A DNA stretch of 64,000 nt from Eledone cirrhosa (taxonomy: Eukaryota): assembly GCA_964016885.1 (NCBI GenBank), contig OZ024742.1:229028001-229092000 (forward strand). The letters are read 5' to 3'. Below the pieces are notes generated by a model. That model did no database searches. It saw nothing but the letters and a program-made list of their open reading frames with translations, and was not told the DNA's origin. Below, one piece after another: positions 50-63,903 of this stretch (within the stretch, counting starts at the first letter, position 1; each line of letters opens with the position of its first letter). The translations under genes were made by a program, and so were the position numbers.

Positions 50-492
50 TAAATAGATTAGTTTTGCGAGGTTTTTGATATGAAATCGTGTGTCGAAACA
101 AATATTGTTATACTTGGGGAGGGTCATATTTGTGTAATATTGCCAGAATTAATAACAGAACACACTCACTGTTTGGTTGGTTTTCGCTTTTCGCTTCTGT
201 GCCTTTTATATCGGTAATCTAATTTATTCGGTCCTCAATGTTGCCATTGACTGACCAACGGTCACAAATAATACAGATACAATATAGACACAAACACATG
301 TGTTTGAGTCTATATTGTATCTGTATTATTTTTGATCGTCGGTCAGTCGATGGCAACATTGAGGACCGAGTAAGTTAGATTACCGATATAAAAGGCACAG
401 AAGCGAAAATCGAAAACCAACCAAACAGTGAGTGTGTTCTGTTATTAATTCTGGCAATATTACACAAATATGACCCTCGCCAAGTATAACAA
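50..492. mobile_element. TA-embedded non-coding element, family H1, inverted (palindromic) insertion
   Basis: Arms ~105-297 and ~299-492 are reverse complements (centre 'caaacacatgtgtttg'), flanked by (TA)n. Related sequence at 4013-4280, 21619-22260 and 62808-63100. Confidence 0.75.
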
Positions 493-929
493 TATATAAA
501 TATAAATATATATCTAAATATCTAAATATAAATATATATATATATATATATATATATATATATATATATATATATATATATATATATATATATATATATA
601 TATATATATATATATATATATATATATATATATATATATATATATATAAATATATATATAGATACACACACACACACACACACACACACACATATATATA
701 TATATATATATATATATATATATATAACCAGAAGGAGAGGTAGGAATAGAAGTATAGACGTTCAATAGTTCTGTCTATTCTTTGTTAAATGAAGTAACAA
801 AAGCTGAGTAGATGATGGTTTAACTATTGATGTAAGAATTAATATTCTTCTTTCTTCTCCTGTAACATCTATGTCTTTCATGGCATTGTTCAGAAAATCG
901 AAATTAATTGATCGTGATAAAGGTTCACT

Positions 930-1018
930 TTTATTTTGTATTCGTACCTAGATCACTAAACAAACACACAGAATTGCGTATGTGTGTATGTAGTGATCTA
1001 GGTACGAATAGAAAATAC
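930..1018. repeat. short imperfect palindrome
   Basis: 'tattcgtacctagatcacta' ... 'tagtgatctaggtacgaata' arms, adjacent to (ATGT)n. Confidence 0.7.
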
Positions 1019-1269
1019 AATGTATGTATGTATGTATGTATGTATGTATGTATGTATGTATGTATGTATGTATGTATGTATGTATGTATGTATGTATGTA
1101 TGTATGTATGTATGTATGTATGTATGCATATATATATATATTTATATATATATATATAGATATATATATATATATACATATATATACATATATATGTATA
1201 AACATATAACTGTATACATATATATATATATATATATATATGTATATATATATATATATATAAATATAT

Positions 1270-1428
1270 AACGAAGGAAATGTGGTAAGGAACCAGGTGG
1301 ACCATAACGCACCAAAGTACTCAATACTTAGGGTATTAGAGTGGGTAATAGGAACCAGTAAGGCCAGTTAGTCCAGAATTAGCCGTCGAAACGGCTTGAG
1401 CTCAGCCGTCGGGGTCTTACTGGTTCCC
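1270..1428. mobile_element. family H2 fragment (3' end plus inverted HHR 3' half)
   Basis: Same sequence as 5350-5560, 9117-9308, 17202-17421 and 52712-53143. Contains GAAA-cggct-tgagctc-agccg-TC-ggggt; flanked by (TA)n. Confidence 0.8.
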
Positions 1429-1545
1429 ATATATATATATATATATATATATATATATATATATATATATATATATATATATATATATATATATATATAT
1501 ATATATATATATATATATATATAATATAATCAAGGTTTATATATA

Positions 1546-1975
1546 TATATAATATAATCAAGGTTTAGCAAATAAGAAAAAGTTTTAAAATAAATTTCAA
1601 AGAATTCACTGTACTTACTATGGTTACGTTTACCGAATGGTTTCGAGTCTCAAAAATAAATGGATAGTCCTTGCGAGCCTCCATTGAAAAGATAAACCCT
1701 CGTCAGAAGGTTCATTTCACTCGGAGAAAATAAAATTCCCGAGTTCGAATTACAAACTGGCGCTATTCAAAATTGTTCCCGAGATGAGAATGAATGATGT
1801 GGAAGCAATTCTGTCCAGTGTCGTGTGCAAAGATAGAAGGCAGAGGCAGGGAGGTCAATCTACTACCACTATAAATAACAGCAGTCAAAACGACCAAATT
1901 TTATCTCGACCAGGGGGAGATTAATAATAATAAAGTATATAATGCTACACGCAAAAAACATATAGGGACACATGT
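1546..1975 (-). mobile_element. family H3 copy with type I HHR (1626-1711, slightly decayed)
   Basis: Reverse complement of the 62111-62785 element. Minus strand reads acctt-CTGACGA-gggttt...agactc-GAAA-ccattcgg-TA-aacgt. Confidence 0.8.
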
Positions 1976-60712: not shown

Positions 60713-62110
60713 TTATATATATATATATATATATATATATATATATATATATATATACGTGTGTGTGTGCGTGTGCGTGTGTGTGTGTTTGCCTTTCATC
60801 TTTTAGGGGTTGATAAAGAAAGTACCACCACATTGCTGGTGCAGACTTTTCTTCCTCTAGCTGTCACATCTTAGAAATTTCAATTATTAGATCGAGTATC
60901 GAGAGGGTGTATGCGATTGCATAGGCACGTATAACACTAATCGAAACATGATATATACTACCATATATATAGACGGCTGTCTTTATATATATATAAGCAC
61001 TAGCAATACAATAGCTTGGATTCAATCAAATATGGCTTTCTTCGAAAATATTGGACTTTTGTTAAGAAATCAATAGATTTGAGAATAAGGTTTGCAGGTG
61101 TATTGTTCACAATACGTTATAATATTGATCATTATTTCAACTAAATGTCAGTTATTGTAATTTAAAGAACAGCTGAGATATAAACGTTTATGTGTCAATA
61201 ATAACGTAACTTCTATGAAAATTTATTGACTGTTCAATTGTTAATAGATAATAAAAATAGAAAAAATCTTGTAACGAAAGTTTCATAATCCAAACTTCGT
61301 CGCACTCCAGTACGTGGGCGAGGCAGCAAATTGGCAGAATCGTTTGAACACCGGATGTAATACTTTGCGTTATTCGTTCCCTCTCTCTGAGTTCAATTCC
61401 CGCCGAGGACACCTTTGTCTTTTATCGTTTCGCGGTTGATAAAAAACGTCCCAATCCAGTACTGGGTAGATTCTTCCCCTATATCTCTTTCTCTCCATCT
61501 TTCTCGCGTTCTCTGGAAAAGATGGTTTTGACCTGTGTTCCACCAGGTTTAAATAATGTTTTGCATTTACGGATCCATACATGCATACAAGATAGATCTA
61601 TGTTCGGGATCCGAGGTTTCGACGACGAATGTTCAAGTTGTTTGATTAGTGGAATAGCCTGCTCGGGAAATTTACTAGACACATCTAGTTCCCGGTCATA
61701 TTCAGTTGAGGCAACTTGCTTTTGAAATAAACCAGCAAGTGGCTCAACATTCCACGGACACGTGCTCATTTAAGCTAATTCTCAGGGTGATTCAGCGTGA
61801 CATAATATGTGTCAACACAGGAGATTTGAATGACAAGTAAAACTCATTTTTTCTTCAGCTGAGTGGACCAGATTAACGCGTACGGCTCAAGGTCACAACG
61901 TTCCACCGGTTTGAGAATCGAACTCATGATCGTGCGACCATGACCCAAACAATCCTAACAATGAAGCCTTCAATGACATTCTAATATGTGCCAGATACAA
62001 AACGAATCAAAAACTTAGGAAAGAAATTGTTTATTTTATATATATTTTCAAGAAACCAGAAAAAAGAGTAAGCGAATATAAAATGTATATTACAATATAT
62101 ATATATATAT

Positions 62111-62785
62111 CGGGAATTTTATATTCTCCAAGTGAAAAGAACCTTCTGACGAGAGTTTATATTTTCAATGGACGCCCGCAAGGACTATCTATTTATTTTT
62201 GAGACTCGAAGCCGTTTCGGTAAAGGTAACCATAGTAAGTACAATGAATTTTTTGAAATTTATTTTGAAACTTTTTCTTATTTGCTAAACCTTGATTATA
62301 TATGTTCTGGCTCGTTAATTTATTAACCTGCCATTGAACCACATTGGCATATGGTTGGATAATACATGTGTCCCTATACGTTTTTTGCGTGTAGGAATAT
62401 ATATTTTATTATTATTAATCTCCCCCTTGTCGAGATAAAACTTGATCGTTTTGACTACTGCTATTTTTAGTGATAGTAGATTGACCTCCCTGCCTCTGCT
62501 TCTATCTTTGCACACGGCACTGGACAGAATTGCTTTCACATCATTCATTCTCATCTCGGGAACAATTTTGAATAGAGCCAGTTCGTAATTCGAACTCGGG
62601 AATTTTATATTCTCCGAGTGAAAAGAACCTTCTGACGAGAGTTTATATTTTCAATGGACGCCCGCAAGGACTATCCATTTATTTTTGAGACTCGAAACCG
62701 TTTCGGTAAAGGTAACCATAGTAAGTACAGGGAATTTTTTGAAATTTATTTTGAAACTTTTTCTTATTTGCTAAACCTTGATTAT
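62111..62785 (+). mobile_element. family H3: ~1.4 tandem monomers, 486-nt period, HHR in each repeat
   Basis: ~190-bp direct repeat (62111 and 62597); predicted cleavage after 62222 and 62708; flanked by (TA)n. Confidence 0.9.
62627..62713 (+). ncRNA. type I hammerhead ribozyme
   Basis: acctt-CTGACGA-gagttt...agactc-GAAA-ccgtttcgg-TA-aaggt. The upstream copy at 62141-62227 has GAAG instead of GAAA. Confidence 0.9.
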
Positions 62786-62807
62786 ATATATATAAATATA
62801 TATATAT

Positions 62808-63100
62808 GGTTATACTTGGGGAGGGTCCTATTTCTGTAATATTGCCAGAATTAATAACAGAACACACTCACTGTTTGGTTGGTTTTCGCTTTTCGCTTCT
62901 GTGTCTTTTATATCGGTAATCTAATTTATTCGGTCCTCAATGTTGCCATTGACTGACCAACGGTCAAAAATACAGATAAAATATAGACACAAACACATAT
63001 ATATATTCTCTCAAAGTTCTTTCGTTGCACATCTGCAACATCGTCAGTGGTGCTATTGTTTCCTTCCGTTGCATTGTATTTTCTACGCCATCTTTATTTA
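62808..63100 (-). mobile_element. family H1 copy with HHR core (63012-63049)
   Basis: Nearly identical to 107-298. Minus strand reads ca-CTGACGA-t-gttgca-gatg-tgcaac-GAAA-gaac-TT-tg. Confidence 0.75.
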
Positions 63101-63569
63101 GTCTGTTTATATATTTATTTATTTGTTTATATTTTTTTTGTCTTCTTTGCGCATGCGTTTGCGTGTGTGTATAGTGTTTTGTTTGATGTGTGTTCGTGAT
63201 TGGGTGACTGTGTATTGGTTAATGTATTCTATCCTTACTAGTGTGTGTTTATATGTGTTTGTTGTTATTGTGCTTGTGTATGTATTTATTTATTTATCTA
63301 TCTATTTATTTATTTATACTTCTCTTAGGTCAGTGTTGTTTGTTTGGGTGTTGTTGTTATTCCATTCAATTTTTCTGTTTAGCCTTGGCCTTCTAAGTTC
63401 TATTTCACTGGCCTCTCTGATTTGCCTATCTACTGGATCATTTCTATGTTTAGATATTATTCTAATTTCTATGTTGTCTATGTTACCATCGTCTTGTGTC
63501 TGGTTCAGTACTATACGAACATGCCAGACAACAACACGACGGTAACATAGACAACATAGAAATTAGAAT

Positions 63570-63903
63570 AATCGATTAATTGGTGAAATATATTTCTTTA
63601 ATGGAATATATACGAGGGAGATTAATCAAATTATAAGGTATCTATTTTTGAAGTTCTAGTTAAACTTTATTTAGTTACCTACCTAGCTATGTGTGCTTAC
63701 ACACTTTTACAAATTATCCCCTGCGATTGTTTCATATGTTTAATTATATGTCAATTAATTTCTAGTTGATATAAAATGCTCGGATCTGCTCATTAGAATC
63801 TTGGAGCATATTTTACGGGTGATATGGCGCATGTCTATCTGGCATGACACTCGTAATTTAATTTGATTTAATTTAATTTAATTCAAATTATCTTAATTTT
63901 GGA
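63570..63903 (+). mobile_element. family H8 copy, 5'-truncated within HHR stem II
   Basis: Begins at 'tcgattaattggtGAAA' and matches 58734-59062. Confidence 0.85.

Follow-up and report, generated by a model that had tools for sequence, protein, structure and literature searches.

The window, meaning the whole stretch of DNA analysed here, comprises 64,000 nt from Eledone cirrhosa (GCA_964016885.1, OZ024742.1, 229,028,001-229,092,000, forward strand). Its islands are insertions of Penelope-like elements (PLEs) into (TA)n, often arranged head-to-head with a one-sided tail. We distinguished ~19 groups: five represent autonomous PLE ends, four of them from the Hydra clade and one Neptune/Nematis-like; six are ORF-less tandem monomers of 420-570 nt; and eight carry no assignment.

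A 5'-truncated, frameshifted Hydra-type PLE lies at 17711-21603 (+). RT (YRDD), CxCX5C linker and GIY-YIG occupy 17711-19640 and are followed by a long 3' UTR, a decayed hammerhead ribozyme (HHR) near 21516 and an end in (TA)n; in a relative at locus L020 the GAAA is intact. Some elements of this genome have 3' UTRs of more than 1.5 kb. F1 (52-505) is a fold-back stub of a Neptune/Nematis-like PLE 3' end, covering the part 3' of the HHR and a one-sided 50-nt tail. F1a is a head-to-head pair (21620-22262) with HHRs at 21805-21847 (-) and 21983-22025 (+) and a one-sided 60-nt tail, and F1c (62808-63572, -) holds the end of a GIY-YIG ORF, the 3' UTR and an HHR at 63012-63049. Three further fold-backs derive from Hydra-type PLEs: F6b (52713-53043), the 3' end of an autonomous element, with U3-A8-core HHRs at 52725-52823 (-) and 52933-53032 (+); F12 (50513-50702), a pseudo-LTR with an HHR at 50597-50647 (-) and the bulged hairpin discussed below at 50557-50575 (-); and F11 (53235-53656), the pseudo-LTR of a 3.8-kb internally deleted PLE, with HHRs at 53377-53443 (-) and 53547-53613 (+).

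The ORF-less monomers include F8, a retrozyme in partial tandem at 62111-62782 (+) with a 486-nt unit (62297-62782), HHRs at 62141-62227 and 62627-62713 and a hairpin at 62304-62339; a further copy lies at 1552-1977 (-). F4 (~445 nt) forms a fold-back at 6898-7709 with HHRs at 7120-7162 (-) and 7387-7429 (+) and a hairpin at 7269-7295 (+), and has additional copies at 51926-52660 (HHR 52370-52412) and 60061-60713. F2 (~455 nt; 4291-4680, +) has an HHR at 4457-4538 with an 8-bp stem III. F7 is a tandem with a 571-nt period (58212-59060, +; further copy 63572-63902), a U3-A8-core HHR at 58689-58783 and hairpins at 58368-58397 and 58509-58526. F13 (~541 nt; 14108-14549, -) carries an HHR at 14277-14355 and a hairpin at 14192-14215, and F9 (~423 nt; 53924-54503, -) an HHR at 54026-54087 and a hairpin at 53969-53989, its junction being seen at this locus only. 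The sequence-only reading had described the islands as lacking ORFs, which holds for these six monomers and fails at 17711-19640 (a broken RT and GIY-YIG ORF) and at 62808-63572 (the last codons of such an ORF).

The remaining islands are F3 (5571-5995, -; minimal HHR 5686-5724), F5 (7727-8346, +; HHR 8184-8263; second copy 53671-53909, -, with a hairpin at 53695-53725 (-)), F19 (59284-59542, -; HHR 59390-59440 with a U4A core throughout the family; hairpin 59318-59363), F20 (2298-3044, -; HHR near 2400-2480, U4C core), F18 (6232-6864, -; decayed classical minimal HHR near 6300-6345) and F17 (59786-60043, +; decayed HHR near 59938). Fold-backs are F16 (59553-59769; HHR 3' halves, hairpin 59610-59634 (-)), F23 (22528-22878; a relative of F8, hairpin 22600-22635 (-)), F14 (22940-23317; hairpin 22985-23009 (-)) and the F6 stub at 17203-17420, which has the HHR 3' half alone and a hairpin at 17349-17372 (+) within an 80-nt tail. 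F6 stubs of like form lie at 1271-1428, 5350-5557 and 9118-9307; by eye, their truncation points appear to cluster in stem II.

Hammerhead motifs in the window

We defined a type I HHR by a CUGANGA core (or its U3-A8 form), GAAA and NUH, with three stems in type I order. Motifs with this core and three stems occur in the window, and the fold was found at all 11 positions at which the sequence-only reading had placed one: 4457+, 5686-, 7387+, 8184+, 21983+, 50597- (with a single core change, A6G), 52933+, 53547+, 54026-, 58689+ and 62627+. A canonical-core descriptor found 13 HHRs in the 64 kb (mean 0.06, maximum 1 in 100 local dinucleotide shuffles). Admitting U3-A8 cores gave 16 complete HHRs against 0.125 in eight shuffles, and admitting one mismatch gave 20 against 3.1, so that the motif numbers exceed those of shuffled sequence, a check which that reading had proposed. 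Its estimate of ~30 motifs was if anything low: the program found 21 complete or near-complete HHRs and nine 3' halves, and ~15 additional decayed or half motifs were counted by eye. A one-mismatch match at 49503 was taken as chance.

The Rfam Hammerhead search proposed along with the shuffles gave no match in the window at gathering score. For the sole HHR scanned alone, Hammerhead_1 (RF00163) reached 19.7 bits (E 0.013; gathering 34 bits) at 4458-4537. With the E limit relaxed to 10, 372 rows resulted, and the best 150 belonged to miRNA models and one viral-UTR model, all under gathering; these rows fall on palindromes and microsatellites. We folded 12 HHRs and read the minimum-energy fold as a three-way hammerhead junction at 4457, 52933, 62627 and 54026, as close to one at 58689 and as partly so in the other seven; z was below -2 in just 2/12. 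A search for cores of the types G3-C8, A3-U8 and U3-G8 gave none in the window and none in a 400-kb sample, and no HHR was found in F10 and F15. F6 was first read as lacking an HHR, a reading dropped once its U3-A8 core and 6-bp stem III were recognised. Hammerhead dimers of PLEs were reportedly described by Lunse et al. in 2017. HHR activity is not to be assumed, because only one of nine predicted Xenopus dimers cleaved in the experiments reported in bioRxiv 2026.07.22.740005.

Insertion signatures and clade of the elements

In each family the 3' end is fixed at two positions, E1 and E2, both abutting TA, and in fold-backs one arm usually ends at E1 and the other at E2. TA abutted the element ends in 44/50, 9/13, 9/9, 14/17, 27/44, 18/55, 28/51 and 11/15 cases in eight sets; the corresponding figures for a SINE were 8/87 and 1/47, and the random figure was 86/3700. 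A one-sided extension of 34-116 nt was present in 15 of 18 fold-back islands.

Four of the groups lead into autonomous elements as follows. At least 1.45 kb of upstream sequence is common to 8/30 copies of F1c, and all four that were translated encode RT and GIY-YIG; a same-strand PLE ORF lies upstream of 7/30 copies of F6b; F11 is present at both ends of a PLE; and the F12 tail continues into an ATG and a PLE ORF (L041). RIRWR/RVRWR (RxRWR, RWK-like) and DKT occur in L041 (F12) and L191 (F11); the RWK/DKT region is absent from the window ORF and lies outside the F6b loci. A CxCX5C linker and GIY-YIG in C-terminal position, with no CCHH, were found in the window ORF, L041, L191, L129 (F6b) and L078, and by eye these Hydra-type ORFs lack the cysteine pair inside GIY-YIG. 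Canonical HHRs and insertion into (TA)n, as in the Hydra clade, were also found. F1 (L092) has a CX4CxxC linker, YVDD and a cysteine pair inside GIY-YIG, in line with the CX2-5CxxC linker of Neptune/Nematis, a label that covers both clades jointly. All clade assignments are motif-based and not from an RT tree. Pfam gave no relevant family on five window pieces, and RVT_1 and GIY-YIG stayed under the cut-off for related ORFs. Assignment of the window ORF to Naiad, which has an N-terminal endonuclease and no canonical HHR, was rejected, as its endonuclease is C-terminal and HHRs are present.

These features agree with the Hydra clade of C-terminal EN+ PLEs (Craig et al. 2021, PMC8557442), whose description includes RWK-like, DKT and CxCX5C motifs, a canonical HHR close to the 3' end, insertion into (TA)n and inverted 5'-truncated copies with one-sided tails. 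Its supplement lists a (TA)n-targeting, HHR-bearing Hydra PLE from Octopus bimaculoides (Hydra-1_Obim). Tails are 30-40 nt there and 70-130 nt here, and the passages on the clade describe neither non-autonomous partners nor a conserved tail hairpin.

ORF-less units as retrozymes

ORF-less tandem units of a few hundred nucleotides with a type I HHR, the mark of a retrozyme, were found for F8 (486 nt) and F4 (~445 nt) and, with one to three tandem junctions per family, for F2, F7, F9 and F13. A further hallmark of non-LTR retrozymes appeared in 3/30 F8 loci (L143; L164/L166, which overlap), in 3/20 F4 loci and for F13 in L150. A direct second copy follows F8 at 483-486 nt in 7/30 loci and none of the 30 extends into an ORF; of 403 exact matches, the first 100 include four same-strand pairs spaced 483-487 nt apart and no pair spaced 2-6 kb apart. 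The F8 end-to-start joint was present in nine contigs of run X1. The F4 start recurs 426-477 nt downstream in 14/20 loci. Insertions of both lie within (TA)n, so that target-site duplications, which in retrozymes exceed 4 bp, are unreadable. Contigs of runs X4-X6 gave 0-1 F8 records, and no RNA run is listed as containing a separate 311-nt family; neither result bears on expression.

One alternative, which we regard as improbable, is that every island is a stub passively left by the 3' end of an autonomous PLE, and that the apparent monomers, produced as partial tandems by chance or by template switching, never replicate as units. Five of the ~19 groups are indeed such stubs, so the circumstance named beforehand as fatal to an HHR-element community, that every family would prove to be an autonomous PLE end, is partly borne out. 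PLE insertions can form partial tandems according to PMC8557442, and the four monomer assignments F2, F7, F9 and F13 depend on few junctions. In F8 and F4, however, one junction and one period recur at many dispersed loci with no ORF extension, the sole ORF near an F4 copy is a mid-ORF fragment past a TA tract, and multi-unit arrays of the 311-nt family occur on two chromosomes. For F8 and F4, the passive-stub reading is refuted on the sampled copies.

The palindromic form of many islands, together with the local tandem amplification from PLE ends proposed in bioRxiv 2026.07.22.740005, might instead suggest that the monomers spread as DNA satellites or MITE-like fold-back DNA transposons in which the HHR is a relic. 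We give this very little credence. Palindrome centres differ between copies, 3' ends are fixed and 5' ends variable among F8 and F4 copies, the arm asymmetry is exactly the tail, and copies are scattered over all large chromosomes. By our reading of positions, none of 38 F8 variant rows falls in the HHR core or paired stems. Fixed terminal inverted repeats with 2-bp TA duplications were not seen, nor was the absence of a 5'-truncation gradient.

The proposal of diverse, TA-targeted HHR elements mobilised by PLEs is supported, and ORF-less tandem retrozymes proper are among them: F8 and F4 and, with fewer copies, F2, F7, F9 and F13. Individual families may already be catalogued in Repbase or Dfam. 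Non-LTR retrozymes (Cervera and de la Pena 2020, PMC7229834; Li et al. 2026, bioRxiv 2026.07.22.740005) are likewise ORF-less tandems of a few hundred nucleotides with a type I HHR, found beside PLEs. Their mobiliser is inferred there from co-occurrence and pseudo-LTR similarity, whereas here the monomers bear PLE insertion signatures and, in addition, a discrete cis element that they share with one clade. The retrozyme passages of PMC7229834 mention no octopus or other cephalopod.

A bulged hairpin beside the 3' ends

This element is a hairpin of the form RYUY / 2-nt bulge / GARY, common to autonomous and ORF-less families, which begins 4-12 nt beyond E1 on the 3' side; wherever E2 allows it to be seen, a hairpin follows there too. 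The families had been called unrelated, which was overstated, since one probable priming-site hairpin is common to most of them. The 4-12-nt offset holds in 11 families with tails of ~70 to 130 nt, and F11, F7 and F2 have a second hairpin 3' of E2. The hairpin was present in 14 of 19 tails (one doubtful; 0.2 expected), only a discovery figure because these in-genome tails were chosen while the descriptor took shape. Held-out families contained it in two of seven testable cases (0.02 expected); it was not found in the other five, in F3, whose tail is cut short, or in the Octopus Hydra-1_Obim consensus. By eye, it is clean in three of six published Hydra consensi (PMC8557442).

With the descriptor fixed beforehand, Hydra-type PLEs from metagenomes had the hairpin after the HHR in 28/39 clusters from unrelated contigs (1.1 expected) and in 44/63 upstream regions (1.6 expected). 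These hairpins are often paired, ~62 nt apart, and the two precede the ORF start by ~105 and 42 nt. The bulge is UU, UC or UA in 69/70 of them, and the first inner pair is Watson-Crick in 66/70 (47 C-G, 19 U-A). MAFFT failed to align the 5' strands of 41 hairpins. They are located in the 5' UTR, where a role in transcription or translation is conceivable. We found no earlier description of this hairpin in the literature that we searched.

The hairpin probably sets where reverse transcription is primed internally and links these retrozymes to Hydra PLEs. It seems likely to us that the islands arose by insertion into (TA)n by PLE proteins, mostly of the Hydra clade, comprising 5'-truncated autonomous ends and ORF-less 420-570-nt HHR monomers copied in trans, with hairpin-guided internal priming. 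The GIY-YIG endonuclease would nick (TA)n and the PLE protein would bind the hairpin of the element's RNA; with the nicked DNA as primer, reverse transcription would start in an AU-rich stretch immediately 5' of the hairpin. Two hairpins would give two start sites and hence the tail, and priming on both target strands would create head-to-head pairs. ORF-less monomers would persist through keeping the hairpin signal, and the HHR would probably process tandem transcripts to monomers or circles.

A Poseidon-clade PLE of Anolis initiates in vitro at two internal sites bounding the tail (Frangieh et al. 2024, PMC11167929), with a stem-loop at the start and both strands of AT-rich DNA cut and extended. 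In this reconstituted element, initiation took place at a site without homology to the cut DNA, and cleavage by the HHR was dispensable, so that annealing to TA and the role proposed for the HHR may be wrong. Its stem-loop is AC-rich, lies inside the ORF and has no reported conservation, unlike the bulged GCUC/GAGC-type hairpin found here, which occurs once per proposed start site in the 5' UTR and is conserved across hosts.

The same insertions could be accompanied by a paired hairpin that is no priming signal. It would lie beside the two start sites by chance, acting from the 5' UTR as a promoter or in translation or packaging, or it would be read as DNA by the endonuclease. Its position upstream of the metagenome ORFs is in keeping with this, as are the requirement of the Drosophila Penelope tail for endonuclease recognition of DNA (cited in PMC11167929) and a weak lean to the sense strand (inner pairs G-U 11, A-C 4). 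We nevertheless consider it unlikely, given the offset to the 3' end, which stays at 4-12 nt in 11 families differing in tail length, the second hairpin after E2, and the hairpin's retention by ORF-less monomers, which need no translation signal.

Returning to hairpin-guided priming, the hairpin may be a signal that lets ORF-less parasites borrow one clade's enzyme. We lean slightly towards a stronger form of this proposal, in which the paired GCUC / 2-nt bulge / GAGC-ACU hairpin would be a portable, clade-wide RNA signal bound by Hydra-clade RTs to choose internal priming sites and integrate into (TA)n. At least six retrozymes of the window, and more genome-wide, would then be 'SINEs of Hydra PLEs' defined by carrying it, and the hairpin-less set (F1, the 311-nt retrozyme) would use another PLE clade. 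PLE enzymes are the closest relatives of telomerase, and an RNA element positioning their priming would therefore be of wider interest. The mobilisation of retrozymes in animals and the choice of internal start sites by PLE RTs are presented as open questions in passages of PMC8557442, PMC7229834, PMC11167929 and bioRxiv 2026.07.22.740005. A conserved 20-40-nt element beside both start sites of autonomous and ORF-less families makes both testable by mutation and grafting, and could serve to match retrozymes with their mobiliser. Were the hairpin set aside, what is left would be a dense, otherwise ordinary case of PLE stubs and retrozymes of known kinds.

The sequence-only reading knew of no description of such family diversity; heterogeneous consensus families of minimal HHRs were described for metazoan PLEs in 2014 (Cervera and de la Pena, PMC4209133). 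Those HHRs also share opposite-strand pairs 100-700 bp apart, an extra nucleotide between 9 and 10.1, short palindromic stems III and U3-A8 cores; here several stems III are long and some families have fixed U4A or U4C cores. As for density, the window has ~2.5 times the sampled genome average and is dense without being exceptional, 13 HHRs being reached in 4% of resampled 64-kb draws. Extrapolation from the sample gives ~230,000 intact HHRs genome-wide (112,000-397,000), compared with 2,000-9,000 per genome in PMC4209133 and with retrozyme copies of ~5,000 in mussel and up to 120,000 in axolotl (PMC7229834; bioRxiv 2026.07.22.740005); if confirmed, this count would exceed the per-genome figures in the literature compared.

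Hammerhead ribozymes in the window and in the genome

The window is part of a contig of 379 Mb, and the whole genome measures 3.0 Gb. Using a descriptor of the type I hammerhead ribozyme (HHR) that combines core, three stems and NUH, we found 13 motifs, compared with a mean of 0.06 in 100 block-wise dinucleotide shuffles. With the U3-A8 core admitted and stem II matched more tolerantly, the count rose to 16 (0.125 in shuffled sequence), and permitting one mismatch raised it to 20 (3.1 in shuffled sequence). The sequence-only reading had counted about 30 motifs by eye. All 11 coordinates it cited were recovered among the descriptor matches, the excess over shuffled sequence was confirmed, and the overall tally came to ~45 motifs in ~19 groups, including two with a 2-bp stem I, nine 3' halves and ~15 decayed or half motifs recognized by eye. 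Rfam at gathering score missed the HHRs of the window.

The 13-motif descriptor was also applied to forty 10-kb stretches at round positions on 19 contigs. This 400-kb sample yielded 32 motifs (0.3 in shuffled sequence), and counts per stretch tracked the number of TA tracts (Spearman 0.49). Extrapolation from the forty stretches gives ~230,000 HHRs genome-wide (bootstrap 112,000–397,000). The 13 motifs of the window were reached in 4% of resampled 64-kb draws. In 943 kb of genome loci, a set biased by family searches, 214 matches formed 44 clusters; the first 254 kb of this biased set held 78 matches versus none after shuffling. Because of the sampled density, the resampling and the 44 clusters, we conclude that HHR diversity is genome-wide and that the window, although HHR-rich, is nothing unusual in its genome. 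Published counts, obtained by methods that differ from ours, are 2,000–9,000 HHRs in each of several genomes (PMC4209133), with ~5,000 for mussel and as many as 120,000 copies for axolotl (PMC7229834). Taken as a community, these HHRs are a dense example of kinds already known, and the interpretation offered by the sequence-only reading is supported in part.

Some families, labelled F1–F23 here, carry variant cores. U4A is family-wide in F19 (59390–59440, minus strand; copies ~96% alike), and U4C in F20 (2400–2480, minus strand) and in relatives of F14 (23016–23317); more U4C, U4A and U3-A8 families occur among the 44 clusters. U3-A8 and U4C are known natural variants (PMC3088659, PMC4209133).

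Insertion at TA tracts by autonomous and ORF-less families

All families have a fixed 3' end at (TA)n, toward which the HHR strand is directed outward, and variable 5' ends. TA adjoined element ends in 18/55 to 9/9 copies, depending on the family, compared with 8/87 and 1/47 for SINE controls and 86/3700 for random positions. The non-TA control was a common ~190-nt SINE (76 matches in the 400-kb sample), which we take to resemble octopus SINEs; its listed copies lie at 10936–11122, 16984–17145, 24749–24965, 38350–38542, 41598–41798, 43186–44131, 45841–46037, 49182–49389 and 59076–59290. Fold-back islands, in which two element copies stand head to head, had a one-sided extension of 34–116 nt in 15 of 18 cases; two had an extension of ≤11 nt and one lacked an inverted match. 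This combination of 5' truncation, adjoining inverted copy and one-sided tail is the signature of Penelope-like elements (PLEs), as set out in PMC8557442.

In F6, the commonest family (23 matches in the 400-kb sample), with window fold-backs at 1271–1428, 5350–5557, 9118–9307 and 17203–17420, nearly all copies viewed had their fold-back centre inside or just 5' of HHR stem II, which hints at a stop of reverse transcription there. Fold-back centres at 21863–21967, 53449–53541 and 59653–59757 reached 58–63 bits with miRNA models of Rfam, short of the gathering score, and stubs of this kind might be annotated in error as miRNA genes.

A broken ORF with reverse transcriptase (RT) and GIY-YIG domains occupies 17711–19640; a first-look search of the genome gave 49,453 candidates for its endonuclease, 150 of which were scored. 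Intact Hydra-type open frames of 826–962 aa were listed as well. At least 1.45 kb upstream was common to 8/30 F1 copies, with RT and GIY-YIG in 4/4 translated, and a same-strand ORF preceded 7/30 copies of F6b. F11 stands on both sides of a 3.8-kb internally deleted PLE, and at one locus the F12 tail runs into an ATG and ORF. Judged against the motif section of PMC8557442, the stretches covered carry the Hydra marks RxRWR and DKT in the F11 and F12 ORFs and CxCX5C in all four of the F11, F12, F6b and window ORFs; the F1 ORF has CX4CxxC and YVDD. The supplement of that paper lists an O. bimaculoides Hydra element with HHR and (TA)n targeting. In that species a Hydra-type ORF homologue (P0015) goes under the name 'GATA zinc finger domain-containing protein 14-like', probably a mis-annotation.

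The 486-nt F8 unit was followed by a direct second copy at 483–486 nt in 7/30 loci (two overlap), always with the same junction, and the five PLE matches near F8 loci were all inverted or beyond TA tracts. There were 403 exact pattern matches, and the first 100 contained four pairs on the same strand at a distance of 483–487 nt and none at 2–6 kb. The F8 end-to-start joint was present in nine contigs of sequencing run X1; F23 is related to F8. The F4 start recurred 426–477 nt downstream in 14/20 loci, and three of the 20 had two HHRs separated by one unit. Monomers of F2 (455 nt), F7 (571 nt), F13 (541 nt) and F9 (423 nt) are defined by one to three junctions each. By their sequence, the units of F8, F4, F2, F7, F13 and F9 fit the definition of non-LTR retrozymes in bioRxiv 2026.07.22.740005. 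F3, F5, F14, F16, F17, F18, F19 and F20 were assigned neither to the autonomous families nor to these monomers. The islands had been described as having no ORF, a statement that breaks down at 17711–19640; F1, F6b, F11 and F12 are tied to PLE ORFs, and F8 and F4 form ORF-less tandem monomers.

A hairpin in the family tails

Each family has two TA-abutting 3' ends, located (nt past GAAA, 4-nt bins), for example, at 40 and 120 in F6, 44 and 116 in F12, 52 and 144 in F16, and 96 and ~210 in F8. Just 3' of the first lies a hairpin, starting 4–12 nt past that end in 11 families, in which a 2-nt bulge on the 3' side separates a 4-bp outer helix from the inner helix. The outer helix covaries among families (GCUC/GAGC, ACUC/GAGU, GUUC/GAAC, GUUU/GAAC). 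The hairpin was detected in 14/19 tails (F15 among them doubtful) versus 0.2 expected, in a discovery set that itself shaped the descriptor. It was not found in the tails of F1, F10 or F3 (the last being short); the F2 copy scanned missed it by one pair, and by eye it is visible at another locus of the genome (L192). In F11, F7 and F2 the second end, too, is followed by a hairpin, which in F2 has a 1-nt bulge. The families had been called unrelated, a view contradicted by this tail hairpin, which autonomous and ORF-less families have in common. F4 contains one more hairpin of this form (7433–7453, plus strand), which starts 4 nt past the HHR cleavage site and overlaps stem I; no 3' ends mapped at that site.

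Among families absent from the window, the hairpin occurred in 2/7 testable ones versus 0.02 expected, and was unmatched in 5/7. Of six published Hydra consensi inspected by eye, three show it cleanly (two from sea cucumbers and one from a coral); it had one mismatch in a copepod element, was doubtful in a second coral element and was not seen in the octopus element. The descriptor used for the families absent from the window was applied unchanged to 78 loci on metagenome contigs that encode relatives of the PLE ORF. An HHR lay outside the ORF in 53/78. The hairpin followed the HHR within 200 nt in 28/39 clusters remaining after dereplication (1.13 expected; 4 in reverse orientation) and preceded the ORF match in 44/63 regions, which were not dereplicated (1.62 expected; 2 in reverse orientation). 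With the outer helix alone required, 53/78 loci contained 70 distinct hairpins with a 2-nt bulge, versus 0, 1 and 9 with bulges of 0, 1 and 3 nt. The bulge was UU, UC or UA in 69/70, and the first inner pair was Watson-Crick in 66/70 (47 C-G, 19 U-A). Two distinct hairpins were spaced 39–83 nt apart (median 62; 25 loci), and 29/30 aligned hairpins had an ACU 3' extension.

The elements thus have paired fixed ends, TA targeting and asymmetric fold-backs, and a conserved, covarying hairpin lies at a near-fixed offset in autonomous and ORF-less families alike. In a Poseidon PLE (PMC11167929), reverse transcription begins internally, at two positions that delimit the tail; both strands are cut and extended, and HHR cleavage is dispensable in vitro. 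We infer that the Hydra protein would bind each hairpin and prime just 5' of it. The putative priming stretch is G-poor and AU-rich, and our guess is that it might anneal to nicked TA; Poseidon priming, in contrast, is non-homologous (PMC11167929). By analogy with the retrozyme model, the HHR would cut tandems into monomers or circles.

The interest of the finding rests mainly on the hairpin. Neither the hairpin nor an octopus retrozyme survey was found in full-text searches of mostly open-access literature. A 2026 repeat annotation of Octopus vulgaris reports 31 recently active PLE families (PMC13282606), and in the portion of its main text consulted the words 'ribozyme' and 'Hydra' are absent.

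Further elements

Arrays of several units of a very young 311-nt HHR retrozyme, with an inverted 5' copy, lie inside (TA)n at two other loci (L024:8436–10000; L038:6000–8050). No Hydra-type hairpin was found in its 32-nt tail, and by word matching 0.66–0.90 of the family's sequence words were present in runs of four organisms.

F15 is a ~265-nt tandem and fold-back element in TA (8389–8625 and 50736–51081; also L114:930–1200) with no recognizable HHR. Its tRNA-like module scores 35.6 bits with Rfam tRNA at L114, above gathering. F15 may be an HHR-free PLE parasite and, more speculatively, might be processed at the tRNA-like fold. F10 (51113–51892), flanked by TA tracts, is a partial tandem with a period of 579 nt, in which neither HHR nor hairpin was found.

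The window also contains a Helitron helicase-like fragment (28135–28494, plus strand; Pfam Helitron_like_N, E 1e-14), an open frame with C2H2-like zinc fingers that by eye resembles a LINE C-terminus (23581–23985, minus strand), and a 30-bp minisatellite with higher-order units of 43, 73 and 103 bp (36688–37713).
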